A DNA stretch of 64,000 nt from Vicinamibacterales bacterium (GTDB lineage: Bacteria; Acidobacteriota; Vicinamibacteria; Vicinamibacterales; JAMQPK01). The stretch is from NCBI GenBank assembly GCA_035281225.1, contig DATEEI010000097.1, forward strand, positions 16,496 through 80,495, written 5' to 3'. Below the pieces are notes generated by a model. The model was not told where the DNA came from and ran no database searches. It saw nothing but the letters and a program-made list of their open reading frames with translations. Positions within the stretch are counted from its first letter, which is position 1, and the number at the start of each line of letters is the position of its first letter. Shown here piece by piece: positions 42,891-62,828 of the stretch. The position numbers and the translations under genes were made by a program.

Positions 42891-42949
42891 AGCTTCTCCG
42901 GTCAGAAACTCGGTATCGAGTATTCTTCCGAGCTGGTGGCCGGTAGCTG

Positions 42950-43861
42950 GTGGCTGAATCAATGATTGGGCAAACCGTTTCGCATTACATAATCGTAGGT
43001 AAGCTTGGGGTCGGCGGCATGGGGGTCGTTTACGATGCCGAGGATCAGCACCTCCCCCGCAGGGTTGCCCTGAAATTCCTGTCCGAGGAGCTCGCCGGGG
43101 ACGCCGACGCGACGCGACGCCTGAAGCGAGAGGCGCAGATCATCGCGCTCCTGAACCATCCGCACATCTGCACGGTGTACGAAATCGCGGAGCACGAAGG
43201 CCGTGCCTTCATCGCGATGGAGCGTCTTGACGGCAGGACCCTCAAGGCGCACATGGCGCGCAAGGAGCTCGAAACGGCGGAGATTCTCGGGATCGCGCTT
43301 CAGATTGCCCAGGCGCTCGAAGCGGCGCACGCCAAGGGCATCGTCCATCGCGATATCAAGCCTGGAAACATTTTTGTCGATGAAGGCGGGCGCGTGAAGG
43401 TGCTGGACTTCGGCTTGGCCCGGCGTCTTCCAAACCCTGCAGAACACAGCGTCGCGACACCGACCGACGGATCGACGATACCGGGCCGGCCGGTTGGAAC
43501 CGCGAGCTACATGGCGCCCGAGCGGATTCTGCAGTTGCCGCTCGACCCGCGCTGCGATCTCTTTTCGCTCGGCGTTGTGATCTACGAGATGGCCACGGGG
43601 AGGCTCCCGTTCGCGGGCGCCTCCCCTGCCGAAACCGTGACCAACATCCTCGAACGGGAACCGATCCCTGCGACGCAGCTTTCACCGGACCGGCCGGGAC
43701 AGCTTGACCGTATCGTGACCAAGCTCGTCGCCAAGCGCGCGGAGGACCGGTACGAGTCGGCCGGTGCCCTGCGCACCGATTTAGAGGCGCTTCGGAATCG
43801 GTCGAGCCTTCCGCTGATTAAACGTGTGCTTGGCAGGTGGTTCGCTACCAGTCGACCCTGA
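42950..43861 (+). CDS. Ser/Thr protein kinase, soluble kinase-domain-only
   Basis: 303 aa. [43 protein letters not shown]. Start is GTG 42950 or ATG 42962. Confidence 0.9.
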
Positions 43862-44273: not shown

Positions 44274-47200
44274 TCATTCGACCAACGGCCGAATTGTCGC
44301 TCTCGAAACGAAGCGGCTTCGGTACTGCTCGGAAAGCGAACTTCGAATCTGCGCAATGAGCTTCGTGGCAGAGGAACGTTCGGTGGCAGCCGCGATCGTT
44401 TCTCCTCGCCGCGCGAGCGCCAATCCGCGCCAATAGTGCGCTTGCGCGTTCAACTCAGGCCCGACCGTCACGCTCCCGAGCTCTAACGTGCGGAGGACTT
44501 TGGCATATTGCCGCTCCTGAAACTCCTTCCGCGCCCGTTGGAGCGCGCACTCGGCCCGCACGTGAGCCTTATGGAAGGATCTCAACGCTGCTGACTCCAC
44601 ACCAAGATAACATTGAGCTACCAACGTGGCGGCGCCAGGTACATCTCTCACGGCTGACGCGACCGCGTGCTGAAAATGCGTTCGTGCGGCGTCGGGTGAT
44701 CCGGACTCCAAAGAGAGCTCACCGAATGATTCGTACAGCTGCGGCGCAAGCCTCATTGCTCCGGTCGACTCGACCTGCGCCAGCGCCTGTTCGAGATGCT
44801 GCTTCGCACCGTCAAAGTCTCCCAGACGAACGAGCACACGGCCCAACGTGATGTGCACCTCAGGGACGCTGCTGTCAGAGGCCAGTGCGTCCACGAGAAT
44901 CGTGCGAGCGCCCTCGTAGTCGCTCTGCAGAACCGCGACGTCCGCCGTAGTAACTCTGAGCAACGTCAGCCGGTTCTTCAGGTCACGTTCCGTCGCTATG
45001 CTCGTCGCCTTCTGCAGAATTCGCCGCGCCTCAGCTAGACGGCCTGAAGCCGCTTCGCTCTCACCCTGAACCTGCATCGCAAAGACCTCAAAATCCGCGT
45101 AGCCCAGCTTGCGGAACGTGGCGAGCGCATTCGTGAGACGATGTGTGACCTCGGCGGGATCGAGCCCGAGCACAATCTGCAAATTCACCGCAGTCACTTC
45201 AAGCTCCGCAGCGCGGCGCTCGTTGCCTATCTGTCGGTAGACATCCCGGCTGCGCTCGTAATACGCGACCGCCTCGGAAGTGCGACCCATCGCTTCCTGA
45301 GCAACGCCGAGATTCATCAAGGCGACTCCCTCCAGACGTCGGTTTCCCACCTGCACGCCGCGGGAGAGAGCCTCCTGAAATGACTGCGCTGCCGCCGGGT
45401 AATTGGGTTCCCGAGCGGCTGCCAATCCAAGGTACTGATGGATCCGGGCAAGCCCATACGGGTAACCGAGCGATCTAAAGATCTCGTGCGCTGTCTCTAT
45501 TTCCGCTCTTCCTGCCTTCAAATTGCGCTGTTGGAGAAGTGCGTCAGCGTGACACAGTAGCGCTTGCGCTTCGCCCCCCCGATTGCCGGAAGTACGAAAA
45601 GCCCTCAGCGCGATTTGTGCGTGTCGCTCCGAGAGCGGATAGTCATCGAGAAAGGCGTATAGCTGACAAAGATCGACGTGCACACGTCGGTATTCAGGAT
45701 CGACCGCAAGCACGCGATGGTACGCTTCGACGGCAGGCTCGTTCCGGTTTTGTCTCTTAAGAAAATCAGCAAGTTCAATTTGCAGAGAGGGATCGTCGGT
45801 ATGGAGGCCACTCAACTCGCGGTAGAAGTGCTCCGCGCTTGTGAGATTGTTCTGGCTCTCCGCAAGAACGGCAGCGGCAAGGACAGCGCTGGATCTCGGC
45901 GTGTGGGCGCCAACGAGCTGGGATCCCGCTCTCGCCGCAGCCTCCGCGCCTTTCAGATCGCCCAATAGAAGTGACGTCTTGCTCAGCCATATGTAACTGA
46001 GAACGCGTTGCCCATCCAGCTCAACCGCGCGCATGAACGCGGCACGCGCGGTGCCATACTCCAGCTGTTCGTAGGCGTTCGAGCCCTCCTCGAACGCTCG
46101 AGCGGCCTCAAGCGTCGGGAAGCGCGCGGCTTCCGCGTTGGTCGTCGGTGGCCGATGCGGCCAATTGAGCTTGAACTGCGCCTGAATCCGCGAGGCCAGC
46201 GCCACCATCAATCGCTGAGCCGTCTCTTGGGGCAACGCCGAGGTGATGGAGTCGGTTCGGACGGTGGCGATATTTGTTCCGGTCTCCACATTCCGTACCT
46301 CCGCTTCCGCAACCCACGCTCCGTCGCGGTACTCGAGCGCTGGAACGATCAGAAATCTCACCCTGGCATCGCGGGCGATGGCTTGAATCGCATCCCGGCC
46401 TGATATGTCGCCGGCGCCGAGCAGATATCCGCGAAGAGCCTCAAGCAGACGCGAGTAAGTGGTAACACGCAGATTTGGCGAGTCCCGGAGTTCCCCGATC
46501 AACGATTGAGTCAGGGTCAACCGATACGCATCCAGAGCGCGCTCACCCGTATGATTCGCCACCGGCACGATAGCGATCGGCGTGCGGGGCAATGGCCTGG
46601 CGAGCCAGAGATAACCAGCGGCTGCACCGATGGCGAGCACGGTCGCTGCCACCACCACCGCCATCGTTCGCGAGCCACGCCGTATTCTTCCCTCTGCCCT
46701 CTCCCCTCTCCCCTCTCCCCTCTTCCCTCTTCCCTCTTCCCTCTGCCCTCTTCCCTCTTCCCTCTGCCCTCCCCCCTCCACCAGCACCGCTTCCGTCCGC
46801 ATGTCGAGCGGCATGCTGCGCCCTTGCAGGTGCCGCAACGCGCGGCAGAGGTCTCTGGCGTTCTGATACCGCTCGGCCGGATCCTTGGCGAGCGCGCGCC
46901 GGACGATCGGCACGATACCTTCAGGGAGGTCCGGCACCGTATCATCGAGCGGCGCAGGCTCCTCATTCTTGATAGCGTAGAACACCGCTTCCGGATAGGA
47001 CCCCTTGAACGGGCCGCCGCCCGTCAGCATTTCGTAGAGCACGACGCCGAGCGCCCAGATATCGCTGCGCTCGTCGGCTTCCTCGCCCCGCGCCTGCTCC
47101 GGCGACATGTACGCGACCGTACCGATCGTCGATCCTTCGAGCGTCAGCTTGAGCGCCGCGTCTGCAAGCTTCGCGAGCCCGAAGTCCAGAATCTTCACGC

Positions 47201-49897: not shown

Positions 49898-50488
49898 CTA
49901 GCCTGCCTTCTGCGGCGTGGTGCGCTTGGCGCTTCGCCCCTTCGTCTGGGCGGCGCGCGACGATTTCTTGCTGCCGGGATCGGCATCCTCGGAGCTCTTG
50001 CCACGCAGGCGATCCGCCGCCGCGCGGAGACGCCCGCCGACACCGGACTTCGGCTTGGGAGCCGCTGCCGCCTTCGTGTCTTTCGGCGCCGCCTTCGGAT
50101 CGTACTCGCTGCCGACGAGCTCGAGCTGCGCGAGCTCGGCACTGTCGCCGCGGCGGAAGCCGAGGCGCAGGATTCTCGTGTAACCGCCCGGCCGCTCGGC
50201 AAACCGCGGCGCGATGGTCTCGAACAGCTTACCGACTACGTCGCGATCGGCGAGCTCACGCGCGACAAGACGGCGCGCGTGGAGCATCTTGCCGTTGGTC
50301 TCGCCGCCAGCCAGGCCTCGCTTGGCGACCGTGATCAGCCGCTCGACGAACGGCCTCAACTCCTTGGCCTTCGGCACGGTGGTTTCGATATGCTCGTAGC
50401 GGATCAGCGCCGTCGCCTGATTGCGCAGCATGGCAACCCGGTGCTCGGTGACCCGCCCCAGTTTTCGATGTGCAACTCTATGACGCAT
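49898..50488 (-). CDS. rplQ: 50S ribosomal protein L17
   Basis: [53 protein letters not shown]. 196 aa, including a ~75-aa K/A/P-rich C-terminal tail. Confidence 0.95.
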
Positions 50489-50506
50489 GGTGTTCTCTCA
50501 ACGTGA

Positions 50507-51493
50507 CTATTCGGCCCGATTCGCAGCCGGCTGATCGATCCGCATGCCCAGGCTCAGGCCCATGCTGGTCAGGATCTCCTTGATCTCGTTCAGCGACTTG
50601 CGGCCGAAGTTCTTCGTCTTCAGCATCTCGCCTTCGGTCTTCTGCACGAGCTCACGGATGGTCCTGATGTTGGCGTTCTTCAGACAGTTATACGACCGGA
50701 CCGAGAGCTCCAGCTCTTCGACGCTCTTGTCGAGATTCTCGTTGAGCGATCCCGTCTGCTGCTGCTCGGCCTGCGCGTCGGTCTGATCGTCGGCCGATTC
50801 TTCCAGGTTGATGAAAATATTCAAATGGTCGCGCACGAGCTTCGCCGACAGCGAGATCGCGTCGCGCGGTGTAACCGATCCGTTGGTCCAGATATCGACA
50901 GTGAGCTTGTCGTAGTCGGTGGTCTGGCCGAGGCGTGCCGCCTCGACGAGGTAGTTCACCTTCTTCACGGGCGAGTGCACCGAGTCGATCGGGATCCAGC
51001 CGATGCCGAGATCCTCGTCGAAGTTCTTGTCGGCCGAGATGTAGCCGCGGCCGCGCTTCAGCCGCATCTCCATGTTGAGCTTGCCGCCTTCGGACACGGT
51101 CGCGATCTTGGCGTCCGGCTCCAGAATCTCCACGTCGCCGTCGGTCTGAATGTCGCGCGCCTTGACTTCGCCCGCCTTCTCGACGCGCAGATACAGCGTC
51201 TTCGTTGTATCGGTGTGCATCTTCAGCGGCACCTGCTTCAGGTTGAGGATGATGTCGGTCGCATCCTCGACCACGCCCGGAATGGGCGAAAACTCATGCA
51301 GCACGCCGTCGATCTTCACGGCGGTAATCGCCGCACCCTCGATGGAGGAGAGCAGCACGCGCCGCAGCGCGTTGCCGATGGTGGTGCCGAACCCGCGCTC
51401 GAATGGCTGGGCGTAGAACCGCCCGAAGCGATCCGTTAACGTTTCACGCTCTAACTCGAGCCGCTTCGGACGCTGAAAACCTTTCCACAACAT
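50507..51493 (-). CDS. rpoA: DNA-directed RNA polymerase alpha subunit
   Basis: 328 aa with NTD and CTD (..[24 protein letters not shown]..). Alpha operon position. Confidence 0.96.
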
Positions 51494-51609
51494 GTCGTAT
51501 GTCCTTCCCTACCGGCCTTGCGGCCTCAGACCTGCAAGTGTGATCACCGGCCTCCCACCGCAGGTCTGTAAGGCTGCGGGCCAGTGACTGGGTAAAGGGG
51601 TCTGACCCC

Positions 51610-52239
51610 TTATTTACTGTACAACTCCACGATGAGCTGCTCCTGCACGGGCAGATTGATCTGCTCGCGCGTCGGCAGCGAGGCGACTTTGCCCGAGAGC
51701 CCGTTCGGATCGAACGACAGCCACTCCGGAATGCCGCGGCCTTTCACTTCTTCAATCGCGTGCTGAATCGTCGGCGCCTGCCGGCTCGACTCGCGCACCG
51801 TGACGACATCACCTACACGGACCGAATAGGACGGCACGTCGACTTTCCGGCCGTTCACGAGGAAGTGGCCGTGCCGGACGAGCTGACGCGCCTGCGGCCG
51901 CGACGTCGCGAGGCCCAGCCGATAGGTAACGTTGTCCAGCCGGCGCTCGAGCAGCTGCAACAGCGTCTCGCCCGTGATGCCGCGCTGCCGTTCAGCCGAC
52001 TCGAAGTAGCGTCGGAACTGATCTTCGAGAACGCCATAGATGCGCTTGACCTTCTGCTTCTCACGAAGCTGAACGCCGTAGCCGACCATCTTGGCCTTCC
52101 GCGTCTTGCCGTGCTGCCCTGGCGGGAAATTGCGCTTCTCGATCGCGCACTTCTCCGTGTAACAGCGCTCTCCCTTGAGGAAGAGCTTCATGCCTTCTCG
52201 CCGGCAGAGCCGGCACACCGGACCTACGTATCGTGCCAT
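51610..52239 (-). CDS. rpsD: 30S ribosomal protein S4
   Basis: [26 protein letters not shown].., 209 aa. Confidence 0.96.
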
Positions 52240-52250
52240 TAATTGATCCT

Positions 52251-52285
52251 TCTCAGCTTCCAGCTGCCAGCTCTCAGCTGCCAGT
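52251..52285. repeat. heptad array tctcagc ttccagc tgccagc tctcagc tgccagt (rpsK-rpsD spacer)
   Basis: Read directly; 5 units with a 7-bp period. Confidence 0.85.
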
Positions 52286-52294
52286 GGAATTTAG

Positions 52295-52738
52295 TTATAC
52301 GCGTCGCCTCTTCGGCGGCCGGCAGCCATTGTGCGGAATCGGCGTGACGTCGCGAATCGACTTCACCTCAATGCCGATCGTCTGCAGCGCCCTGATCGCC
52401 GACTCGCGGCCTGAACCCGGGCCCTTCACGCGCACTTCAACCGAGCGCAGCCCCACCGTCTTCGCAACGTTGCCGGCAGCAATCGCGGCCTGGGTCGCGG
52501 CGAACGGCGTGCCCTTCCGCGAGCCCTTGAAGCCGACGCCGCCCGCGCTCGACCAGGCAATCACGTTCCCTTCGATGTCGGTGATCGTGATCATCGTGTT
52601 GTTGAACGACGCGTGGATGTGCGCGTAGCCGGTGTGCACGATCCGCTTCTCGCCACGCTTCTTGAACGTCTTGCGTGGCTTCTTCGCGCCCTTTTCGCCT
52701 TTTTCCGGTGCGGCGCCTTCTGCGTCAGTCTTGGCCAT
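52295..52738 (-). CDS. rpsK: 30S ribosomal protein S11
   Basis: ..[45 protein letters not shown].. 147 aa with a K/E-rich N-terminal extension. Confidence 0.96.
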
Positions 52739-52753
52739 CTGTTTCTTCGCTCC

Positions 52754-52830
52754 TAGCTACCAGCTACGAGCCACCAGCTACCAGCAGGTTCCAGCGAAAA
52801 CTGGAAGCTGGCAGCTGAAAGCTGGCAGCT
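52754..52830. repeat. heptad arrays tagctac cagctac gagccac cagctac cagcagg, then the inverted ctggaag ctggcag ctgaaag ctggcag (rpsM-rpsK spacer)
   Basis: Read directly. Central perfect hairpin ttccag-cgaaaa-ctggaa at 52789-52806. Confidence 0.85.
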
Positions 52831-53203
52831 ATTCAACCTTCTTCTTCGCGACCGCGCCCTTGCGCGGTCCTTTGCGCGTCCGTGCGTTGGTGCGCGTGCG
52901 CTGGCCGCGGACCGGCAGCGCTCGGCGGTGACGCCCGCCGCGGTAGCTGCCGATTTCCATCAGCCGCTTGATGTTCAGCGAAATCTCCTTCCGGAGGTCG
53001 CCTTCGACGCCGCCCTGCTCCTCGAGCACGCGGCTGATCTTGCGTACGTCGTCCTCGGACAGATCCTTCACGCGGATGTCAGGACTGACCCCCGCCTCCG
53101 TGAGAACCTTGTTCGATCGGTGCCGCCCGATACCGTAAATGTAGGTGAGGCCGATTTCGACCCGCTTCGTGCGCGGGAGATCGACTCCAGCAATTCTCGC
53201 CAT
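52829..53203 (-). CDS. rpsM: 30S ribosomal protein S13
   Basis: [26 protein letters not shown].., 124 aa. Confidence 0.96.
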
Positions 53204-53213
53204 AACTCTTTGT

Positions 53214-53255
53214 CCTCGACTGTCGACTGTCGACTACCGACTGCCGACTGTTAAC
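53214..53255. repeat. heptad array cctcgac tgtcgac tgtcgac taccgac tgccgac tgttaac (rpmJ-rpsM spacer)
   Basis: Read directly. The last unit contains the rpmJ stop codon (53251-53253). Confidence 0.85.
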
Positions 53256-53364
53256 CCTGCCTCTGCTTGTGTTTCTGGTTCGAGCAGATTACGCGAACCA
53301 CTCCGCGCCGGCGGACGATCTTGCACTTATCGCAGATGCGCTTGACTGACGCTCGTACCTTCAT
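53251..53364 (-). CDS. rpmJ: 50S ribosomal protein L36
   Basis: Not in the ORF track (37 aa). Manual translation gives [37 protein letters not shown], with the CxxC..C..H zinc ribbon. The 5' 38 nt overlap the map 3' end. Confidence 0.92.
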
Positions 53365-54139
53365 TGTCTCGTTCCTTCGCTGGCGCGCGCTGCAGAAGAG
53401 AGAGCACATCTGCACCGTCCGCCGTTACTGCAACCGTGTGCTCGAAATGGGCCGACAGGCTGCGATCCGACGTGATCGCGGTCCATCCGTCCTTCAGCAC
53501 CTTGACGCCGGCTTCTCCCAGGTTGACCATCGGCTCAATCGCGAGCACCATGCCTTCAGCCAGCCGCGGGCCGCGCCCCGGGTCCCCATAGTTCGGAATC
53601 TGCGGTTCTTCATGCAACTCGGCGCCGATGCCGTGTCCCACGAACTCACGCACCACCGAAAACCCAAACTTCTCCACGTGGCTTTGAACCGCGTGGCCGA
53701 GGTCGGACACACGCGCTCCTGGTCGAACCACTTCGATCGCCTTCCACAGCGCCTCTTCCGTTACGCGAAGCAAATCGGCTGCCTTCGGCGAAATACTGCC
53801 AATCCCAACCGTCACCGCAGAGTCTCCAAAAAACCCGCCCATCTTTGCGCCCAGGTCGATCGAGATGATGTCACCCTCGCGCAACGCGACCTTCGCCGAC
53901 GGGATTCCGTGCACGACCTGCTCATTCACCGACGCACAAATCGTCGCGGGGTATCCTTTGTAGCCCTTGAACGCAGGCACCGCACCACCTGCGACAATCC
54001 CTCGCTCGGCCAGCGCATCGAGATCTTCCGTCGTCACCCCAGGTGCCGCCGCCTCGCGCAGCTGTTCGAGCACGTGACCGACGAGCTGATTCACCTCACG
54101 CAGACGCTTTAGCTCAGCGGCCGATCGACAGACGATCAC
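53327..54139 (-). CDS. map: type I methionine aminopeptidase
   Basis: 270 aa. ..[10 protein letters not shown].. and metal ligands (D..D..H..E..E pattern). 4-bp overlap with adk. Confidence 0.94.
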
Positions 54140-54801
54140 GGCCGCCGTCCCGACGCAACCGGGACCATAGCATCGATGCCTGCCGCCAGATCAGCCGCAA
54201 CCCGATCCGGTGCCTGCGCGCCGTTGATCGATCGAAACGTTGGGCGCCCGCGATAGTAATCCAGCAGCGGCTTACTCTCCCGCGCGTACACCTCGAGCCG
54301 GTGCTGCCTCACGTGCTCGTCTCCGTCGTCCGCGCGGGTGATCATGCGTCCCCCACAGCGCTCGCACTTTTCCCTGTCGATCGAGTCTGGCTCGGCAATC
54401 GACGCGCATTGACTGCACACGCGGCGCCCTTCCATCCGGTGCAACAGCTCCTCATCGGGCACTGCCAAATCGACGATGACCAGCGGCACTCCCTGCAACA
54501 TGCGGTCGAGGGCCTGCGCCTGAGGAACCGTCCGGGGGAACCCGTCGAGGATGTAGCCCCTGGCGGTATCCGGGCGCTCCAGCCGCTCCTTCACGATGCC
54601 GACCATCTCGTCGTCCCCAAGCAGCTCTCCACGATCCATCAGCGCTTTGGCTCGCAAGCCAAGCTCGCTGCCTCCGGCAGCTGCCTCGCGCAGGATGTCG
54701 CCGGTCGAGATCTTCGGGATGCTTCTCGCCAGTGCCAGTCGAACGGCCTGCGTACCCTTACCCGACGCGGGCGGTCCCAACATGACCACATTGAGCGCCA
54801 T
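54136..54801 (-). CDS. adk: adenylate kinase (zinc-lid type)
   Basis: GPPASGKGTQA P-loop. Lid CSQC..CERCGG. 221 aa. Confidence 0.95.
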   Translation of the reverse strand: MALNVVMLGPPASGKGTQAVRLALARSIPKISTGDILREAAAGGSELGLRAKALMDRGELLGDDEMVGIVKERLERPDTARGYILDGFPRTVPQAQALDRMLQGVPLVIVDLAVPDEELLHRMEGRRVCSQCASIAEPDSIDREKCERCGGRMITRADDGDEHVRQHRLEVYARESKPLLDYYRGRPTFRSINGAQAPDRVAADLAAGIDAMVPVASGRRP

Positions 54802-56199
54802 CTATGCGCGCCGTCCACGGATCCGAGTCTTCTTCATGAAGCCGTCATAGTGCCTCATGATGAGCTGCGATTCGACCTGCTGAATCGTGTCCATCGCGAC
54901 GCCGACGATGATGAGCAGCGTGGTACCGCCGAAGATGAACGTGACACCCATGCCTTCGGTGATGAACCTCGGCAGAATGGCATCGAGTCGTTCGCCGATA
55001 AAAGGAATCGGCGCGACGCGGAAGCCGGTAATCAGAAAGTCCGGCAGAATCGCGATCAACGCGAGGTACACGGCGCCGGCCAGCGTGATGCGCGTCAGGA
55101 TCGTATCGATGTACTCGGCGGTCCGCTTGCCCGGCCGGATTCCCGGCACGAACCCACCGTACTTCCTCATGTTTTCAGCCACATCATCGGGATTGAAGAT
55201 GATGGCGGTGTAGAAATACGCGAAGAAGATGATCAGCGTGATGTAGAGCAGGACGTAGAGCGGCATGCCCATCTGCAGCTGATCGGTCACACGCATAATC
55301 CAGTGACCCGGATCGCTCGCGAACATCTGCCCAATCGTTGCCGGAAACGCCAGAATCGACGACGCAAAGATGACGGGGATGACGCCGCCGGTATTCACCT
55401 TCAGCGGAATGTGGGTGCTGGCCCCTCCGTACATCCGGCGTCCGACCACCCGCTTGGCATACTGCACCGTGATCCGCCGGCTCCCGCGCTCCACGAAAAT
55501 AATCGCCGCCACGACCAGTACCATCACCGCGAGCAGCAGGATGAGCCGGATCAGCCCCATCTGGCCCGTTCTCAGCTGATCGAACGTGGTAATCACGGCT
55601 GTCGGCAGGCCGACCACGATACCCGCATAAATAATGAGGGACATGCCGTTGCCGATGCCCCGCTCGGTGATCTGCTCGCCGAGCCACATGATGAGCGTCG
55701 TGCCTGTCGTCAGCGTCAGCACCGTGAGGAGACGGAATCCCCAGCCGGGGTTATAGACGAGCGGCAACCCGCCGGCAATCTCTGTCGAGCGCTCCAGCCA
55801 GATCGCAATGCTCAGTGCCTGTACGACGCTGAGCAGGATGGTGCCGTATCGCGTGTACTGCGTGATCTTCCGGCGTCCGAGCTCGCCTTCGTTCTTGATG
55901 CGTTCGAGGTACGGCCAGACCACAGTCAGCAGCTGCAGGATGATCGACGCGCTGATATACGGCATGATGCCGAGCGCGAAGATCGTCATCCTCGAGAGGT
56001 TCTGTCCCGAGAACATGTCGTAGAGACCGAACATCGTGCTGCGCGCCTGCTCGGCCAACTGGGCGAGCGCCGCCGTGTTCACGCCGGGGGTCGGAATGTG
56101 ACCACCGATGCGATACACGATGAGCAGTGCAAGCGTGAAGAGCACGCGCTTGCGGAGCTCGGCGATGGCGAACAGGTTCTTGACGCTGTCGATAGCCAT
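54802..56199 (-). CDS. secY: preprotein translocase subunit SecY
   Basis: 465 aa with 10 TM helices. Typical ..GIMPYISASIILQLL.. and spc operon position. Confidence 0.96.
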   Translation of the reverse strand: MAIDSVKNLFAIAELRKRVLFTLALLIVYRIGGHIPTPGVNTAALAQLAEQARSTMFGLYDMFSGQNLSRMTIFALGIMPYISASIILQLLTVVWPYLERIKNEGELGRRKITQYTRYGTILLSVVQALSIAIWLERSTEIAGGLPLVYNPGWGFRLLTVLTLTTGTTLIMWLGEQITERGIGNGMSLIIYAGIVVGLPTAVITTFDQLRTGQMGLIRLILLLAVMVLVVAAIIFVERGSRRITVQYAKRVVGRRMYGGASTHIPLKVNTGGVIPVIFASSILAFPATIGQMFASDPGHWIMRVTDQLQMGMPLYVLLYITLIIFFAYFYTAIIFNPDDVAENMRKYGGFVPGIRPGKRTAEYIDTILTRITLAGAVYLALIAILPDFLITGFRVAPIPFIGERLDAILPRFITEGMGVTFIFGGTTLLIIVGVAMDTIQQVESQLIMRHYDGFMKKTRIRGRRA

Positions 56200-56204
56200 G
56201 TTTC

Positions 56205-56648
56205 TTACAGGGTTTCTGCGGCTCCGCCGGCTGCCGCAATCTTCTCGGCGGCCTTGCCGCTGAACTTATGCGCGCGAATCGTGAGCCCCTTGGTGATCTC
56301 GCCGCGACCAAGCACCTTGACGCGCTCGGCCGATGGCGGGATGAGCCGGCGCTCTCGAAGCAAATCCAGCGTGACCACAGTGCCGGCATCGAATCGCTCG
56401 CCGAGCGTGTCGAGATTCACGACGGCGTACTCGACGCTGAACGGGTTATGGAACCCGCGCTTCGGCACACGACGCTTGAGCGGCATCTGGCCGCCTTCGA
56501 ACCCGCGCTTGCGCTTGAACCCCGAGCGCGATTTCGCACCCTTGTGTCCCCGTCCCGCCTGCGTGCCTTGACCGGTGCCGTGGCCGCGGCCGACGCGCTT
56601 CTTGGAGTGCTTCGCGCCCTTGGGCGGCTTGAGATTTGAGAGATCCAT
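56205..56648 (-). CDS. rplO: 50S ribosomal protein L15
   Basis: MDLSNLKPPKGAKHSKKRVGRGHGTGQGTQAGRGHKG.., 147 aa. Confidence 0.96.
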   Translation of the reverse strand: MDLSNLKPPKGAKHSKKRVGRGHGTGQGTQAGRGHKGAKSRSGFKRKRGFEGGQMPLKRRVPKRGFHNPFSVEYAVVNLDTLGERFDAGTVVTLDLLRERRLIPPSAERVKVLGRGEITKGLTIRAHKFSGKAAEKIAAAGGAAETL

Positions 56649-56650
56649 CG

Positions 56651-56857
56651 TTATTGCACCTCGAGGAGGTGACGAACCTTGTGAATCATGCCCCGTATCG
56701 ACGGCGTATCCGCCAGCTCGACCGTGTGGCGAATGCGGCGCAGGCCAAGGCTTTCGACCACCGCCGCCTGCTTCCTGCCGAATCCAATCGTGCTCTTCAC
56801 GAGCGTCACTTTGACGCGCTTGGTATCGGCCTGTTTCTTCGCTGCTTTTTTAGCCAT
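56651..56857 (-). CDS. rpmD: 50S ribosomal protein L30
   Basis: ..VKVTLVKSTIGFGRKQAAVVESLGLRRIRHTVE.., 68 aa. Confidence 0.93.
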   Translation of the reverse strand: MAKKAAKKQADTKRVKVTLVKSTIGFGRKQAAVVESLGLRRIRHTVELADTPSIRGMIHKVRHLLEVQ

Positions 56858-56861
56858 AACC

Positions 56862-56939
56862 CTTCGTCGTGTTCCCTGTTGCTTCGTGCTCTTCGTGCCT
56901 TCGTGATGCTTCGTGTCTTCGTGGTCAGTGTCTTCGTGG
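56862..56939. repeat. six exact CTTCGTG copies plus one degenerate copy (rpsE-rpmD spacer)
   Basis: Exact copies start at 56882, 56891, 56899, 56909, 56917 and 56932 (spacing 8-15 nt). The degenerate copy cttcgtc is at 56862. Confidence 0.85.
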
Positions 56940-57461
56940 TTACTTCGACACCATCTCCTCGAGATCCTTACCGCGCAATCTCGCGACGGACGAAGGCTCC
57001 TTGAGGTTCTCGAGCCCGTTGAACGTCGCCCGCACCACGTTGTGCGGATTCGCAGAGCCGAGTGATTTCGTCAGCACGTTGTGCAGGCCGGCCGCCTCCA
57101 CCACCGCGCGCACGGCGCCGCCGGCGATGATGCCGGTGCCGTCCGGCGCCGGCTTCAGCAGCACGCTGCCCGATCCAAACGTACCGACCACGGTATGCGG
57201 AATCGTCGTCCCCTGCAGCGGCACCCGGATTAATCCCTTCTTGGCCGACTCGATGCCCTTCTTGATGGCCGACGGCACTTCCTTCGCCTTGCCGACACCG
57301 AAACCCACAACGCCGTGGCCGTCGCCGACGACGACCAGCGCGCTGAAGCTCAGGTTCTTGCCACCTTTGACGACCTTCGTGACGCGGTTGATCGACACCA
57401 CGGTGTCCTTGATGTCGAGCTGGGCCGGATCGATCTTTTCGCGAACTCGCTGAATAGCCAC
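56940..57461 (-). CDS. rpsE: 30S ribosomal protein S5
   Basis: ..[42 protein letters not shown].. 173 aa, GTG start sharing 1 nt with the rplR stop. Confidence 0.96.
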
Positions 57462-57835
57462 TAGAACTCCAGTCCTGCTTTACGCGCCGCATCGGCGACC
57501 GCCTGAATCCGGCCGTGGTACAGGTAGCCGTTGCGATCGAAAACCACTTTAGTGATGCCCTTGTCTTTGAGGCGCTGCGCGATCGTCTGTCCGATGAGTT
57601 CCGCGCCGGCTTTGTTGTTGCCGCGCGTCTTGCCCTTCAGTCCCGACTTGACCGCCGCTTCGGTGGTCCCGGCCGACGCGACGGTCTTGCCCGTCATGTC
57701 GTCGATGACCTGCACGTAAATGTGCGACGAGCTTCGATAGACAGTCAGCCGCGGGCGATCCTGATCGCCGGCGATGCGCTTGCGCAGTCGAAGCTTGATG
57801 CGATAACGCCGATCTTCTCTCGTCTTGATACGCAT
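57461..57835 (-). CDS. rplR: 50S ribosomal protein L18
   Basis: ..[48 protein letters not shown], 124 aa. Confidence 0.96.
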
Positions 57836-57845
57836 AGTCTGTTCG

Positions 57846-57901
57846 CTCTTGGCTCTAGGCTTTGGGCTCTCGGCCTTGGGCCTGCCCTCATCCCTCTGCC
57901 C
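57846..57901. repeat. eight-unit heptad array ctcttgg ctctagg ctttggg ctctcgg ccttggg cctgccc tcatccc tctgccc (rplF-rplR spacer)
   Basis: Read directly. The last 20 nt (gccctcatccctctgccct) repeat the motif of 4600-4626. Confidence 0.85.
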
Positions 57902-58440
57902 TACTTGGTTCCCGTCTTGCCGGCTTTCTTCTTCAGCACTTCGCCGGTGAAGCGCACGCCCTTCTGCTTGTAGGGATCCGGTTGGCGCAGTCGGCGGATG
58001 TTGGCGGCGACCTGCCCCACCAACTGGCGATCAACGCCGGTGACGGTGATGTGCGTCTGCTTATCGATCACGATGTCGATGCCGGGCGGTACGTCGAACA
58101 CGACCGGATGCGAGTAGCCGAGCGCAAAGACGACCTGCTTGCCGCGCAGCTCAGCACGATAGCCGACGCCGACGATGTCGAGCTCGCGCTTGAACCCTTC
58201 GGTCACACCGAGCACACCGTTGGCAGCGAGGCTGCGCGCGAGGCCGTGGAACTTGCCGAGCTCGGGATCCTCGCGCGTAAGCGCGGCCTTGAGCTGGCCG
58301 TCGACAACCTCGAAGGCGATGCCCGGCGGAATCCGCTGCGTCAGCTTGCCTTTCGGTCCCTGAATATCCAGCGCGTCCGGGTTCACCTTGACGGTGACGC
58401 CCTTGGGCAGCGCGATCGGTTTTTTACCAATACGTGACAT
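57901..58440 (-). CDS. rplF: 50S ribosomal protein L6
   Basis: [19 protein letters not shown].., 179 aa. Confidence 0.96.
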
Positions 58441-58445
58441 GTTTT

Positions 58446-58473
58446 TTCAGCTCTCAGCTACCGGCTCAACAGT
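58446..58473. repeat. heptad array ttcagct ctcagct accggct caacagt (rpsH-rplF spacer)
   Basis: Read directly; 4 units. Confidence 0.75.
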
Positions 58474-58892
58474 TACCAAATATTGCACAGCACTTCGCCG
58501 CCGACGCCGGCGCGCATGGCGGCGCGGCCGGTCATCACGCCGCGCGACGTGGTCAAAATGCTCGTGCCGAGGCCGCCAAGCACCGGCGGCACGTCGGTGC
58601 TGCGGAAGTACACGCGGCGCCCGGGCCGGCTAATGCGCTCGAGGCCTGTGATGACCTTTTCGCCGTGCGGCCCATATTTCAGAAAGATGCGGACCATCTG
58701 GCGCGGCGCGACGGCTTTGGCCGCCTCAGGCGATTTCTCGTCGACGAGCTTGAAGCCCTGGATGTACCCCTCGTCCTCGAGAATGCGCGCAATCTCCACC
58801 TTGAGCTTCGAGGCGGGGACGTCCACTCGGGAATGCTTGGCGATGACGGCATTCCGGAGGCGCGTGAGCATATCGGCAATCGGGTCTGTCAT
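58473..58892 (-). CDS. rpsH: 30S ribosomal protein S8
   Basis: MTDPIADMLTRLRNAVIAKHSRVDVPASK.., 139 aa. Confidence 0.96.
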   Translation of the reverse strand: MTDPIADMLTRLRNAVIAKHSRVDVPASKLKVEIARILEDEGYIQGFKLVDEKSPEAAKAVAPRQMVRIFLKYGPHGEKVITGLERISRPGRRVYFRSTDVPPVLGGLGTSILTTSRGVMTGRAAMRAGVGGEVLCNIW

Positions 58893-58925
58893 GTGTTGGT
58901 TCTCTACTCGTTCACTGTTTCTGTT

Positions 58926-58999
58926 CCAGCCGGTAGCTTGTAGCTCGTAGCCTGTAGCGAGCCTTTCCTACCGCCTACCAGCTACCACCTACCAACTAC
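58926..58999. repeat. heptad arrays gtagctt gtagctc gtagcct gtagcga, then the inverted ctaccgc ctaccag ctaccac ctaccaa (rpsN-rpsH spacer)
   Basis: Read directly. About 11 units in strict 7-bp register; GTAGC and CTACC(GCTAC)-type halves face each other. Confidence 0.85.
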
Positions 59000-59174
59000 T
59001 CTTTGTCACTCCCGCGACGTCGCCCTGCAGCGCCAGCTTGCGGAAGCAGAGGCGGCAGAGCGCGAACTTGCGAAGGTAGGCCCGCGGCCGGCCGCACAGG
59101 TGGCAGCGGTTCCGCAGGCGGACCTTGAATTTCGGAGCCTTGTGTTCCTTGGCGATCTTTGCTGTAGTGGCCAT
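58989..59174 (-). CDS. rpsN: 30S ribosomal protein S14, zinc-binding type Z
   Basis: 61 aa with [22 protein letters not shown]. Confidence 0.94.
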
Positions 59175-59176
59175 AC

Positions 59177-59728
59177 TTATCTCTGTTCCTGAGCTCTGAA
59201 CGGCATCCCAATCAACTGAAGCAGCTTGCGCGCTTCTTCATCGGTCCGCGCGCTGGTGACGACCGAGACGTTCATGCCGCGCGCTTTGTCCACCTTCATG
59301 TAGTCGATTTCCGGAAACAGCAGCTGATCCTTGAGCCCGAGCGTGAAATTGCCCCGGCCGTCGAACCCCTTGGGCGACACGCCGCGAAAATCGCGCACGC
59401 GCGGGAGCGCGATCGTCACGAGGCGGTCGAGGAACTCGTACATCCGGTCGCCCCGCAGCGTCACGCTGGTCGCAATCGGCTGTCCCTTGCGCACCTTGAA
59501 GGCGGCGATCGACTTCTTCGCGCGGCGCACGACGGGCTTCTGCCCCGTGATGCGTGCGAGCTCGTCGGCGCCCACCTCGATGATCTTGGCATTCGAGGTC
59601 GCCTCGCCGAGGCCCATGTTCACGACGACCTTCTGGATCTTCGGGACGGCCATCACGTTCTTGTAGCCGAACTCTTTCTTGAGCGCCGGCACGACTTCCT
59701 TGACGTAGCGATCTCTCAGGCGGCTCAT
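59177..59728 (-). CDS. rplE: 50S ribosomal protein L5
   Basis: The real start, ATG 59726-59728, overlaps the rplX stop. [39 protein letters not shown].., 183 aa. Confidence 0.95.
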
Positions 59729-60057
59729 TTGTCGACCACTCCCTCGCACTTCCGGCAGATGCGGACCTTGCGGCCGTCGCCGAGAATCTTGCGGCCGATG
59801 CGCGTCTGCGCGCCGCATTCAGGGCACAGGAGCTGGACGTTCGACGCGTGCAGCGACGCTTCCCGCTCGACGATGCCCCCCTTGACGTTTCGCTGCGGGT
59901 TCGGCTTCGTGTGGCGTTTGATCATGTTCACGCCCTCGACCACGAGCCGGTTCTTCGCAGGGACGACCTTCAACACACGTCCGCGCTTGCCGCGGTCCTT
60001 GCCCGCGATCACGAGGACGTTGTCGTTCTTCCGAATGGGACTCTGCAATAAAGACAT
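59725..60057 (-). CDS. rplX: 50S ribosomal protein L24
   Basis: ..[24 protein letters not shown].. KOW motif, 110 aa. Confidence 0.95.
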
Positions 60058-60061
60058 ATAA

Positions 60062-60128
60062 ACCGTCTACCGTTTGCCGTTTACTGTTTGCCGTTCGGTG
60101 AACGGTGAACTGTCAACGGTGAACTAAC
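60062..60128. repeat. heptad arrays accgtct accgttt gccgttt actgttt gccgttc, then the inverted ggtgaac ggtgaac tgtcaac ggtgaac (rplN-rplX spacer)
   Basis: Read directly. Central hairpin ccgttc-ggt-gaacgg. Confidence 0.85.
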
Positions 60129-60496
60129 TACAGCACCTCAGGTGCAAGCGAAATAATCTTCATGAACCGGCGCTCGCGCAGTTCGCGAGCCACCGGTCCG
60201 AACACGCGCGTGCCGATCGGTTCGCGCTGGTCGTTGATCAGCACGGCCGCGTTGCGATCGAAGCGGATATAGCTGCCGTCCTTGCGGCGCTGCTCCTTCA
60301 CCGTCCGGACGATCACCGCTTTCACGACCTGGCCTTTCTTGACGGTGCCGTCGGGGATGGCTTCCTTCACCGACGCCGTGACGACATCGCCGAGACGCGC
60401 GTAGCGCCCGGTCGAGCCGCCAATCGGATTGATGACCGCGATCTTGCGCGCACCGGAGTTGTCGGCGACGTCGAGGATCGATCGCATCTGAATCAT
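60128..60496 (-). CDS. rplN: 50S ribosomal protein L14
   Basis: [22 protein letters not shown].., 122 aa. Confidence 0.96.
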
Positions 60497-60499
60497 GGC

Positions 60500-60754
60500 T
60501 TAGACCTCCAGCGCCTTTCGGATGACGCGCGTGAGGACCCACCGCTTGCGCTTGCTCAGCGGCCGGCTCTCGACAATGGCGACGCGATCGCCGATCTTGG
60601 CGGTGTTCTCCTCGTCGTGCGTCACGAACTTCGACGTCCGACGCTGGGTTTTGCCGTAGAGCCCGTGCCGCACCTGCCACTCGACAGCGACGACGCAGGT
60701 CTTCTGCATCTTGTTGCTGACGACGACGCCTTCCTTCTCAGATTTCTCAGCCAT
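60500..60754 (-). CDS. rpsQ: 30S ribosomal protein S17
   Basis: ..[40 protein letters not shown].., 84 aa. Confidence 0.95.
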
Positions 60755-60767
60755 GTGCTTCTATGCT

Positions 60768-60837
60768 CTCCGTTTACCGTTTGTCGTTCGCCGTTGACCG
60801 TGTCGCACGGTGCACGGTTGACCGTCAACGGTCAACG
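60768..60837. repeat. heptad arrays ctccgtt taccgtt tgtcgtt cgccgtt gaccgtg, then tcgcacg gtgcacg gttgacc gtcaacg gtcaacg (rpmC-rpsQ spacer)
   Basis: Read directly. Same CCGTT/AACGG family as 60062-60128, with palindromes accgtgtcgcacggt and cgttgaccgtcaacg. Confidence 0.85.
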
Positions 60838-61029
60838 CTTCCGTTGTTTCTCCGTCATGATCGTCTTGATGCACGCCAGGTCCCTGCGCGTATGGCGCAG
60901 CTTCAGCGGCGCATCGAGCTGCCCGAGCGACTGCTGAATGCGCATCCGGAACAGCTGATCCTCGAGCTCTTTCGCGCGCGATTCCAGATCGTCCACAGAA
61001 AGATCGCGCAGTTCCGCCACGTCCATCAT
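60832..61029 (-). CDS. rpmC: 50S ribosomal protein L29
   Basis: The real start, ATG 61027-61029, overlaps the rplP stop (ATGATG). [38 protein letters not shown].., 65 aa. Confidence 0.93.
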
Positions 61030-61451
61030 GACGCTTTCTCCTCGGCGAACCGGGTCGCGAACTTCGTGAGGATGGGCAGCTTCGACGCCGCCAGCCGCAG
61101 CGCTTCGCGCGCCTCGGTCTGGGTCACCCCTTCCATCTCGAACAAAATCCGTCCCGGCCGCACCACGCACACCCACTGGTCCGGCGCGCCTTTGCCCTTG
61201 CCCATTCGCGTTTCCTGCGGCTTCTTGGTAATCGGCTTGTCAGGAAACACGCGCACCCAGATCTTGCCGCCGCGCTTGATGAACCTCGTCATCGCGACGC
61301 GGGCCGCCTCGATCTGCCGGTCGGTCAGCCAGCACGGCTCCATCGCACGGAGTCCGAAGTCTCCGAACGACACGTCGGAGCCGCGCCACGCTTTGCCCTT
61401 CATGCGGCCGCGTTGCTGCTTCCGGTACTTGACCTTCTTCGGCATTAACAT
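61026..61451 (-). CDS. rplP: 50S ribosomal protein L16
   Basis: [21 protein letters not shown].., 141 aa. Confidence 0.96.
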
Positions 61452-61555
61452 TTCGTTATCCCTCGTGGGGCCCCACCCCCACTCGGCTGCCGTCGCTTAC
61501 GCTCCGGATCTTGTTGCGATCAATCCGGTGCTTGGTGACGGACGCTGTCTGAGCT

Positions 61556-61583
61556 AATCCCTAGTCCCGAATCACCAATCCCT
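61556..61583. repeat. heptad array aatccct agtcccg aatcacc aatccct (end of the rpsC-rplP spacer)
   Basis: Read directly. The 11-mer aatcaccaatc also occurs at 3365-3375. Confidence 0.7.
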
Positions 61584-62286
61584 ACGCTCGCGCCTCGCGC
61601 GGCCCCGATGGCCGGCGTGGAGCACGCTCCCTGAATTCCTGTTCCTCGCGCGCCGTCTTCGGTGTCAGGCGCTCGCCCTTATAAAGCCACGTCTTGACGC
61701 CGATCTGACCGTATGTCGTGCTCGCCTCGGCGAACCCGTAATCGATGTCCGCCCGCAGCGTCTGCAGCGGCAGCTGCCCGTGCAGGTACCACTCGGAACG
61801 CGCGATCTCCGCGCCATTGAGGCGCCCCGACACGCGCACCTTGATACCCCGCGCGCCGAACCGCAGCGCCGATTCAACCGCTTTGCGCATCGCACGGCGA
61901 AACGCCACGCGCTTCTCGAGCTGCTGGGCCACCGACTCCGCGATGAGCTGCGCGTCGAGCTCCGGCTTCTGAATCTCCTGGATGTTGATGAACACCTCGC
62001 GGTTCGTCCGCTTCTGGATTTCGGCCTTGAGCTTCTCGACCTCCGTCCCCTTGCGGCCGATGATGATGCCCGGCCGGGAAGTATGAATGTCGATCTTCAG
62101 CTTGTTGGCCGCGCGCTCGGTCTCAATTTTGGCGACGCCGGCGTGCGCGAACCGCTTCTTGAGGTCGGCGCGCAACGCCAGATCCTCGTGGAGCAGCTTC
62201 GCGTAGTCGCGATCGGCGAACCAGCGCGACTTCCACGTCTTGTTGAACCCGAGCCGAAATCCGTACGGATGTACTTTTTGACCCAC
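61582..62286 (-). CDS. rpsC: 30S ribosomal protein S3
   Basis: GTG start after [30 protein letters not shown].., 234 aa. Confidence 0.96.
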
Positions 62287-62295
62287 AGCAGCTCC

Positions 62296-62353
62296 TCGTT
62301 ACTTCTTACTTCTTACTTCTTACTTCCCACTTCTTACTTTTCGTGCTTCTTAC
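62296..62353. repeat. heptad array tcgttac ttcttac x3 ttcccac ttcttac ... ttcttac (rplV-rpsC spacer, extending into the rplV 3' end)
   Basis: Read directly. The unit containing tta (62334-62336) supplies the rplV stop codon, and the array continues about 17 nt into the coding sequence (..KSKKHEK). Confidence 0.85.
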
Positions 62354-62828
62354 TTTTCGCGGCCGTTTTCTTCGCCGGCGTCGCACGCTTGCGTACGGGT
62401 GTCGTCGCCGTCTCTCCGGCCTCAGGTTTCGCCTTGGCCGTCCGGCCCTTCGGCGCCGGTGTCGCCACCGCCGCAATCGCCAGCGGCCGCTCCGATACGC
62501 GCACTGTCAGATGCGCGGTGCGCTTCACGACACGGAACGCCCGGCCCATCGGGGCAGGACGAATTCGCTTCATCGACGGCCCCTGGTTGGCGTAGCACGC
62601 CGAGACGAACAGACGATCGACGTCGCCGCCGAAGCCTTCCTTCTGCTGCGCGTTGGCAATCGCCGATCGCAGCAGCTTGGCGATGTCGTGTCCGATCCCC
62701 TTGCGCGTGAACAGCAGTGTAGCGAGCGCACGATTCACATCGCGCCCGCGGATCAAATCCATCACCAGTCCGGCCTTCTGAGCCGACGTGCGGACGTACT
62801 TCGCTGTCGCGTGAGCTTCAATCGCCAT
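62334..62828 (-). CDS. rplV: 50S ribosomal protein L22
   Basis: MAIEAHATAKYVRTSAQKAGLVMDLIRGRDVNRAL.. 164 aa, including a ~50-aa A/K/T/P-rich C-terminal tail. Confidence 0.95.
   Translation of the reverse strand: MAIEAHATAKYVRTSAQKAGLVMDLIRGRDVNRALATLLFTRKGIGHDIAKLLRSAIANAQQKEGFGGDVDRLFVSACYANQGPSMKRIRPAPMGRAFRVVKRTAHLTVRVSERPLAIAAVATPAPKGRTAKAKPEAGETATTPVRKRATPAKKTAAKSKKHEK

Follow-up and report, generated by a model that had tools for sequence, protein, structure and literature searches.

Heptamer arrays in a ribosomal gene cluster

The stretch of DNA analysed here (64,000 nt of contig DATEEI010000097.1 from a Vicinamibacterales bacterium, assembly GCA_035281225.1; hereafter the window) carries at ~50.5–64 kb the S10-spc-alpha ribosomal cluster, in which spacers between genes are filled with tandem arrays of 7-nt units. 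Pfam searches and gene calls place every gene of the cluster on the minus strand, in the order rplB, rpsS, rplV, rpsC, rplP, rpmC, rpsQ, rplN, rplX, rplE, rpsN, rpsH, rplF, rplR, rpsE, rpmD, rplO, secY, adk, map, rpmJ, rpsM, rpsK, rpsD, rpoA, rplQ, and the ribosomal gene names given in an earlier note on this DNA match the Pfam assignments. Junctions within the cluster fall into two classes, tight (overlap or ≤5 nt) and long (32–130 nt), and Tandem Repeats Finder (TRF) detected period-7 arrays in most of the long ones. The nearest public genomes are Vicinamibacterales metagenome-assembled genomes, with S5 proteins at most 92% identical. For comparison, the same ribosomal cluster was fetched from 80 acidobacterial genomes (L-numbers below are locus labels), and survey totals cover 81 clusters.

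An excess of period-7 signal over shuffled sequence, which the earlier note had named, at genome scale, among the checks of its claim, is clear and concentrated in non-coding DNA. With a segment defined as at least 15 of 21 matches at lag 7, the window contained 19 segments compared with 0.85 in Markov-1 shuffles, and 16 compared with 0.15 at a stricter cut-off of 16/21. Lags 4, 5, 8, 10, 11 and 13 gave 0–1 segments each, and signal at multiples of three reflects codons. Using a gene map built from public gene calls, heptad sequence covered 47% of non-coding bases in the ribosomal cluster (471/1005), 8% of those outside it (167/2100) and ~0.3% of coding DNA (194/59,126 bases). Among gaps of at least 15 nt, arrays were present in 9 of 13 within the cluster and 4 of 23 elsewhere (Fisher p = 0.0035; p = 0.006 for co-directional gaps).

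The features at the junctions are given below, with units on the sense strand; fold z is the RNA folding energy relative to shuffled controls.

62287–62353, minus strand, rplV–rpsC: about six GAAGUAA units in a single arm (TRF 62299–62339, period 7, 5.9 copies), extending into the last codons and stop codon of rplV; unstructured, fold z = +1.2.
61553–61582, minus strand, rpsC–rplP: four GGGAUUN units right after the rpsC stop codon (lag-7 segment); the other 100 nt of the spacer lack a heptad period.
60755–60831, minus strand, rpmC–rpsQ: two arms, CCGUUSA units, loop, AAACGGY units (lag-7 segments 60767–60801 and 60805–60837); fold z = −1.2.
60058–60127, minus strand, rplN–rplX: two-arm element of the CCGUU/AACGG family (TRF 60070–60095 and 60096–60124); fold z = −2.7.
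58893–58988, minus strand, rpsN–rpsH: two arms, GGUAGCU units, loop, AGCUACA units (TRF 58933–58958 and 58967–58999); fold z = −2.9.
58441–58472, minus strand, rpsH–rplF: three weak AGCUGAG-like units, not significant alone; fold z = +0.4.
57836–57902, minus strand, rplF–rplR: two neighbouring arrays of GGGCAGA and GAGCCMA type (TRF 57845–57874), the first overlapping the rplF stop codon.
56858–56939, minus strand, rpsE–rpmD: six exact copies of CACGAAG (forward CTTCGTG) at 56882, 56891, 56899, 56909, 56917 and 56932; TRF gives periods of 8 and 18; unusually unstructured, fold z = +2.5.
53204–53250, minus strand, rpmJ–rpsM: five CAGUCGR units from the stop codon up to the Shine-Dalgarno sequence (TRF 53216–53251), with a self-complementary GUCGAC core; fold z = −3.9.
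52739–52828, minus strand, rpsM–rpsK: 90-nt two-arm hairpin of the CCAGCUR family (TRF 52755–52785 and 52801–52830); fold −44 kcal/mol, z = −3.6.
52240–52294, minus strand, rpsK–rpsD: five GCUGGCA/GCUGAGA units (TRF 52254–52284), complementary to the 5' arm of the rpsM–rpsK element 511 nt away (inverted-pair match 24/30).

In essence the earlier note described the sequence correctly. It counted at least 11 junctions with arrays, of which nine are solid. At rpsH–rplF, with its three weak units, neither TRF nor the lag-7 test found an array. At rpsE–rpmD the six exact motifs stand, as does their spacing of 8–15 nt, which makes them a dispersed 7-mer and therefore not a period-7 array. The description of the spacers as almost wholly heptad-periodic is apt for rplN–rplX (68/70 bases) and rplV–rpsC (45/47) and fails for rpsC–rplP (29/130 nt, 22%). 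Arrays that abut or supply stop codons, also claimed before, were seen at rplV–rpsC, rpmJ–rpsM and rplF–rplR. The L22 protein encoded upstream of the rplV–rpsC array (62334–62828, minus strand, 164 aa) has a lysine/alanine-rich C-terminal extension of ~50 residues past the Pfam domain, and the array overlaps the last codons of the gene.

At least seven unit families occur in the window (CCAGCTR, GCCCTCT, CCGTTSA, GTCGAC, GAAGTAA, GGGATTN and ATCGTCG), and their recurrence outside the cluster, as reported in the earlier note, was borne out by TRF and pattern matches. Furthermore, the 21-mer CTGCCCTCATCCCTCTGCCCT, composed of heterogeneous units, is present in identical copies at 4604–4624 and 57882–57902, 53 kb apart. 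Arrays outside the cluster are as follows.

4483–4627, unstranded, between convergent genes: inverted GAGGGNA/TNCCCTC array pair (TRF 4487–4510 and 4596–4624), whose arms pair almost without fault over a long stem; fold −75.6 kcal/mol, z = −6.8.
15690–15723, minus strand, prepilin peptidase–histidine kinase junction: ATCGTCG units (TRF period 7, 4.9 copies, 92% matches), with all 30 bases of the 30-nt spacer heptad-periodic.
42930–42960, unstranded, divergent intergenic region: weak CCAGCTR-family array (pattern matches 42932–42957), under the lag-7 threshold.
46682–46785, minus strand, inside a Ser/Thr-kinase-TPR gene: about 15 GGGAAGA/GGGCAGA units in frame (TRF 12.3 copies).

The kinase-gene array (15 × 7 = 105 nt, or 35 codons) encodes a 7-residue-periodic GRGQREE/GRGKRGE linker between the kinase domain and a predicted membrane segment of the 1099-aa protein. 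A second, REP-like repeat type was also noticed: at 28723–28781 two exact tandem copies of the 31-nt unit GGTCCGGCTAAAGCCGGACACTACGAACATG each form a small GC hairpin followed by CTACGAA. Spacers of L001, L005 and L025 contain comparable motifs, a hairpin plus CTACGA.

Distribution and anatomy in Acidobacteriota

Lag-7 arrays were detected in ~50 of the 80 acidobacterial clusters, and many relatives have none. The densest loci carry up to 28 arrays per 14.5 kb (L076 Pyrinomonadaceae, L061, L025 and L066 Terracidiphilus); in one sample of homologous loci the share of intercistronic bases in arrays ranged from none in some genomes to 84% in others. Across the 81 clusters heptads covered 15.0% of non-coding and 0.15% of coding bases, and lag 7 gave 302 non-coding segments, compared with 19 for lag 8, 11 for lag 9 and four or fewer for any other lag, such that lag 7 exceeds each other non-codon lag more than 15-fold. 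In 68 S11 loci of more distant bacteria (S11 58–72% identical) there were four segments in 289 kb.

The units comprise hundreds of unrelated sequences in both orientations, many with a 4-nt palindromic core (AGCT, TCGA, AATT). Arrays were present in 231 of 656 spacers of 40–230 nt (35%), and 147 of these 231 were long hairpins. The usual layout on the sense strand is a stop codon, 3–5 units, a loop, 3–5 reverse-complementary units, a Shine-Dalgarno sequence and a start codon. Hairpins have a median arm of 26 nt and loop of 20 nt, the stem beginning 5 nt past the stop codon and ending 18 nt before the start codon, and a Shine-Dalgarno-like 4-mer is retained downstream of the stem in 133 of 177. 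Array length is narrow (31–47 nt, 10th–90th percentile). Eighty arrays begin at the stop codon itself, and the GAAGTAA units at rplV–rpsC copy the last 7 nt of rplV. Among the 177 hairpins (L001–L080), the loop k-mers AAGCA, AAAGC and GAAGC were enriched in the sense orientation across differing unit families; AAGCA (loop motif RAAGCA) was found in 22 loops from 11 loci compared with 4.4 in shuffles, and its reverse complement in five.

Turnover, copy-number change and dispersal

Junction occupancy differs between relatives whose S5 proteins are 90–92% identical. In the window 77 nt separate rpmC from rpsQ; in L001 the gap is 6 nt, and in L005 the two genes overlap. Conversely, the rpsQ–rplN gap of 3 nt in the window corresponds to one of 107 nt in L005. 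At rpsM–rpsK, L088 (~93% nucleotide identity in the flanks) has TAG CC ATG where the window has the 90-nt element. Elsewhere, rplP–rpmC is 2 nt in L061, L080 and L056 compared with 94 nt in L076, and rplN–rplX is 25 nt in L044 compared with 100 nt in L052 and L034, with the original Shine-Dalgarno region kept.

Orthologous arrays also vary in copy number and content. The rpsK–rpsD array has three units in L088 and five in the window, and rpmJ–rpsM has four in L001 and seven in L005, which are differences of the kind the earlier note had proposed looking for. L088 carries an orthologous CAGTCGR array at rpmJ–rpsM with different unit content, and a shorter ortholog of the rpsE–rpmD motif region is present in L001. 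At rplN–rplX in close relatives, both arms have switched together between GATTCCA (L052) and GATTCGA (L034), with decayed versions in L044. No relatives at the level of strains came up for such a comparison: exact-protein look-ups returned only the source assembly or relatives at 78–93% nucleotide identity, and a metagenome scan gave nothing above 90% protein identity.

Whole elements are also dispersed. In L066, ten junctions hold copies of one ~100-nt element with unit order and loop conserved and in a single orientation. As whole elements are copied to new sites, local gain and loss of units is real but not the whole story. Of the origins suggested in the earlier note, a footprint of slippage or insertion with a 7-nt step best fits these filled and empty junctions, copy-number changes and dispersed copies.

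The map–rpmJ junction differs between loci in another respect. The infA gene is absent from its usual site (window 53327–53364), and in the window, L001 and L005 the map and rpmJ genes share 38 nt. At this site most other loci from Acidobacteriota contain ~250 nt, which encode IF-1 where examined (L025, L031 and L076).

A PF05635 cassette with inverted heptamer arms

One gene in the window is itself bracketed by inverted heptamer arrays, in a layout resembling an intervening sequence (IVS) of 23S rRNA.

41745–42250, plus strand, IVS-like cassette: left arm 41745–41770, PF05635 gene 41842–42213, complementary right arm 42225–42250.

The gene encodes a 123-aa PF05635 four-helix bundle annotated as a 23S rRNA intervening-sequence protein, whose nearest solved structure is XCC0516 of Xanthomonas (PDB 2GSC). 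The arms are 26 nt long, 85% complementary and 454 nt apart; the left one reads CAGCTGC CAGCTAC CAGCTGC GAGCT, and the window's sole PF05635 gene and the rpsM–rpsK hairpin thus have arms of a common CCAGCTR family. Orthologous loci (L171, L172, L174 and L175; proteins 63–82% identical) have an identical layout, with the bracket at 5/5 orthologous loci, and the arms co-vary among orthologs, CCAGCTN pairing with NAGCTGG and TCAGCT with AGCTGA. No further PF05635 genes were found in the compared acidobacterial loci beyond this orthologous locus.

A tblastn search of 72,556 plasmids recovered PF05635 homologues mostly from Nostocales, and also from Gemmatirosa, Azospirillum and Riemerella. Inverted tandem arms flank 13 of the 14 that were fetched (Cyanobacteriota, Gemmatimonadota and Azospirillum), with octamer units in Gemmatirosa and heptamers in the rest. 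These arms are 26–57 nt long, ~77–97% complementary and 347–520 nt apart, with a differing unit in each cassette. As a control, 50-kb stretches around three PF05635 genes were scanned and contained 3–9 arrays each. In the Nostoc punctiforme and Gemmatirosa stretches, the sole inverted array pairs 150–2500 nt apart are those flanking the PF05635 gene; the Calothrix stretch had no inverted array pair at the stricter control threshold. The bracket rule, that inverted arrays flank PF05635 genes, holds in Acidobacteriota, Cyanobacteriota, Gemmatimonadota and one alphaproteobacterium. The genes typically have co-directional neighbours on either side; examples are positions between cmr2 and cmr3 and beside cas4. 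PF05635-type genes in cas loci were noted earlier, with arms unmentioned (PMC3936711), and no paper stating such a rule was found in the literature searched.

Some Vicinamibacterales (L021, L029, L046 and L074) build the equal hairpin architecture from 8-nt units, e.g. ATCGAGTA / TACTCGAT. With these hairpins and the octamer arms of the Gemmatirosa cassette, the period is therefore not strictly 7.

Relation to known repeats

The earlier note knew of no described interspersed repeats of this kind. Intergenic heptanucleotide repeats, some of them in inverted pairs, are known from cyanobacteria, Xanthomonas, Geobacter and Beggiatoaceae, so the claim of novelty fails: the class is already known, and Acidobacteriota is a new host phylum. 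No report of heptad arrays in Acidobacteriota was found in the literature searched.

Heptanucleotide repeats form the STRR repeats of Calothrix and Nostoc, the classical STRR1–3 units being CCCCAGT, TTGGTCA and CAACAGT. The STRR repeats of heterocystous cyanobacteria were reportedly described by Mazel and colleagues in 1990. The window is not a strict STRR member, as its host belongs to Vicinamibacterales and those three units are not among the recurrent ones. The arrays do share with STRRs and other long simple-sequence repeats (LSSRs) their head-to-tail 7-nt units in a few to ~15 copies, their almost exclusively intergenic, non-coding position, the several families dispersed over many loci per genome, copy-number variation between relatives and an unexplained function. 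They differ in their acidobacterial host and in far greater unit diversity (hundreds), and most are short (3–5 units), hairpin-paired and saturate ribosomal-operon junctions. Heptanucleotide tandem repeats are the commonest LSSR in many bacteria, and an origin by polymerase slippage has been proposed for them (Mrazek, Guo and Shah 2007, as summarised in PMC4679880 and PMC4692102).

Inverted pairing is known from two genera. Xanthomonas genomes contain 70–75 inverted GGGAATC array pairs, whose length varies by species with the single or paired type kept (Rehm et al. 2015, PMC4692102). In Geobacter metallireducens, tandem 7–9-mer sites come in inverted pairs, including a pair between proB and proA, and were interpreted as global-regulator sites (Aklujkar et al. 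2009, PMC2700814). As in our arrays (147/231 array-bearing spacers; window folds of z = −2.7 to −6.8), opposite-strand arrays of one unit lie close together, can form stem-loops and are intergenic, including inside operons. The repeats of those genomes, however, belong to one or a few unit families, interpreted as forming G-quadruplexes or as global-regulator/IHF sites, whereas here there are many. Only the GGGATTN array at 61553–61582 could form a quadruplex and fits units of that type (GGGAATC / GGGGAYT); its unit resembles the G-rich ones of Nostoc and Xanthomonas (PMC4692102). Most units are without G-runs. In marine Beggiatoaceae, TAACTGA direct repeats occur in 2–6 copies per set, with one indirect repeat among 170 sets (MacGregor 2015, PMC4679880). 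They likewise lie directly upstream of start codons, including those of ribosomal-protein operons (L3, S4, S1, fusA), but are of a single unit sequence and almost never inverted.

The 23S rRNA IVSs, which are regarded as selfish inserts in highly transcribed RNA, offer another parallel. In Coxiella burnetii the IVS ends in a 28-bp stem that RNase III cuts, and it contains an S23p open reading frame and 3–4 tandem heptamers, in numbers that vary between strains (PMC4990558). The shared features are terminal inverted repeats (a ~28-bp stem there, at least ~20 bp with a median arm of 26 nt here), a loop that may hold a PF05635 gene, as in the cassettes, and variable heptamers, adjacent to the open reading frame in IVSs. 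Unlike IVSs, which lie in helix 25 or 45 of 23S rRNA and whose excision by RNase III has been shown experimentally, the elements here have arms made up entirely of heptamers, and every copy is located between genes for proteins (Rfam found no rRNA in the window).

REP/BIME/REPIN elements and MITEs are also small, non-coding, dispersed palindromes of intergenic or intercistronic DNA that form mRNA stem-loops. REP-type elements are imperfect palindromes of 20–40 nt whose copies all share a conserved head sequence, whereas the arms here have an internal 7-nt period and come from unrelated unit families with no such head. No Pfam family of the RAYT type (Y1 transposase) is present among the called genes of the 64 kb. 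The arms could act as inverted repeats of a MITE, and three filled-versus-empty comparisons were without clear target-site duplication.

Origin of the arrays

On balance we favour, with some reserve, the reading that the spacer arrays are dispersed, non-coding inserts, small hairpins of an IVS-like kind, which lengthen 7 nt at a time and whose presence is tolerated through folding. Arrays of the STRR/LSSR kind, in Acidobacteriota mostly palindromic inserts of ~60–110 nt, would enter or be copied into non-coding gaps, gain or lose length in 7-nt steps and be rapidly replaced or decay; inserts in coding sequence would persist only if the reading frame is kept. We infer from their resemblance that the hairpins may be miniatures of the PF05635 cassette lacking its open reading frame, related to it as short 23S IVSs are to those carrying S23p. 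In polycistronic mRNA the arms should pair into a 20–30-bp stem and the insert be looped out, which would leave ~23 nt between stop codon and ribosome-binding site, roughly the normal distance. We propose that inserts are tolerated in essential, tightly coupled ribosomal operons because folding rejoins these two sites. By analogy with the IVSs of 23S rRNA, the stem would be a likely RNase III substrate.

A plainer explanation, that the arrays are independent replication-slippage microsatellites reflecting a 7-nt bias of the replication or repair machinery and without mobility, appears unlikely, though it accounts for several of the observations above. Unit numbers differ between orthologous arrays, arrays often include the local stop codon (80 start there, and GAAGTAA copies the rplV end), and the hundreds of unrelated units, the in-frame array of the kinase linker and the patchy, lineage-level distribution all suit such a process. 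It leaves unexplained, however, the complementary arms with matching unit heterogeneity (e.g. the 4483–4627 stem), the conserved loop and unit order in the ten L066 copies, the identical 21-mers 53 kb apart and the inverted-array bracket of PF05635 genes. The appearance of whole 75–95-nt elements in 2-nt junctions and the narrow range of array lengths (31–47 nt) also speak against it.

Still less probable, in our view, is that the arrays are selected cis-regulatory elements, either protein sites (S1, cold-shock protein, CsrA-like or IHF/HU) or RNA insulators and processing sites for balanced expression. Consistent with such a role, arrays are sixfold enriched in ribosomal-cluster spacers over other window spacers (p = 0.0035; 0.006 co-directional), two-arm elements fold well below shuffled controls, all ten L066 copies have equal orientation to transcription and the loop motif RAAGCA is sense-enriched (22/177 compared with 4.4 expected); regulatory roles have moreover been proposed for the Beggiatoaceae, Nostoc and Geobacter repeats (PMC4679880, bioRxiv 10.1101/2022.06.06.494920, PMC2700814). 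However, the presence of arrays at a junction is not conserved at 90–92% S5 identity, many related genomes have no arrays, and unit sequences are unrelated across junctions and genomes. The sense strand shows no G.U excess, and sense and antisense folding energies of the hairpins do not differ (p = 0.12). The idea of structured RNA insulators or processing sites, raised in the earlier note, finds support in the strong folding of two-arm versions and none in the single-arm versions, which are unstructured, or in the G.U counts.

Specific signals were also sought in the units and hairpins. Stop codons occurred in 79 of 186 units in the sense orientation, 65 in the antisense and 75 in shuffles, hence are not enriched as they would be in three-frame stop-codon blocks. 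Repeated Shine-Dalgarno or standby sites are not indicated either (Shine-Dalgarno-like in 7/186 units). As intrinsic terminators the hairpins fail, with T-rich tails in 10/177 and terminator-like sites below expectation. No sigma-70-like promoter sites were found at arrays, and Rfam gave no match at gathering thresholds in the whole window, with one chance-level match (E = 0.61) in 50400–62400.

The same operon does contain an RNA with genuine conservation and covariation, which served as a positive control and further counts against regulation by the arrays. A 66-nt pseudoknot in the rpsD–rpoA spacer (51524–51589, minus strand), without an Rfam match, is conserved in 18 loci of Vicinamibacterales. 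Pairing is 100% in both of its helices, of which helix 1 (8 bp) has four compensatory pairs and the pseudoknot helix (9 bp) three, and its covariation score was reached by none of 500 shuffles. It shows what selected RNA looks like in this operon, unlike the arrays, and is a candidate autoregulatory leader for rpoA/rplQ. Upstream of it, right after the rpsD stop codon (51594–51609, minus strand), a GGGGUCAGACCCC hairpin followed by UUU is a possible weak attenuator at the rpsD–rpoA junction.

That the arrays are assembly or sequencing artefacts has practically no chance of being right. The DNA does come from a metagenome assembly, whose contigs carry MEGAHIT-style names, and many related contigs are short. 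Yet the arrays (30–100 nt) are shorter than a typical read and recur in dozens of other assemblies, apparently from long-read and short-read projects alike, and in finished cyanobacterial plasmids of equal architecture. In addition, a second record (a contig of ENA assembly ERZ27257124, with a MEGAHIT-style name) is 100% identical to the window across 20,375 nt, and every array is flanked by undamaged reading frames, stop codons and Shine-Dalgarno sequences.

Several observations weigh against our preferred reading of the arrays as IVS-like hairpin inserts. In the window, three or four arrays have a single arm and no structure (rplV–rpsC, rpsK–rpsD and the rpsE–rpmD motif), hence a hairpin model does not cover all. 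In the 177 hairpins, A.C mismatches in sense-strand stems outnumber G.U (182 compared with 111; 24 loci compared with 9), thus RNA pairing is not visibly selected; this pattern is opposite to that expected under RNA-structure selection or sense-strand cytosine deamination. No target-site duplication is evident at the three filled-versus-empty junctions, and no transposase was found. The PF05635 locus is syntenic down to 63% protein identity, and the window copy has therefore not recently moved. There is also one PF05635 gene in 64 kb to at least seven unit families, and the 9-mer CGAAAACTG common to the cassette leader and the rpsM–rpsK loop is a weak link (three matches compared with 0.44 expected).

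A wider form of the reading, which we offer tentatively and think somewhat less likely than its alternatives taken together, is that bacterial tandem heptamer arrays (STRR, LSSR) make up the arms of IVS-like cassettes that form a widespread family, with PF05635 cassettes as the full-length form and hairpins and single arrays as miniature or decayed ones. If so, the PF05635 protein, an S23p/Avd-like pentameric four-helix bundle, would act in trans, either recognising or propagating arms with a 7-nt period or needing them for excision from operon transcripts, and every array family in a genome should have a cognate cassette.

Implications

Our analysis adds a major phylum of soil bacteria to the hosts of a repeat class already described, though unexplained, and indicates that essential, tightly coupled operons can absorb hairpin inserts of 60–110 nt at almost every junction. 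The patchy distribution of arrays in Acidobacteriota provides the contrast needed for phylogenetic profiling of the factor responsible. The association of PF05635 genes with heptamer arms is the one lead that looks new, and raises the interest of the arrays themselves: the bracket rule links two orphan observations, the heptamer repeats and the S23p/Avd-like proteins of unknown function found inside cas and other operons.

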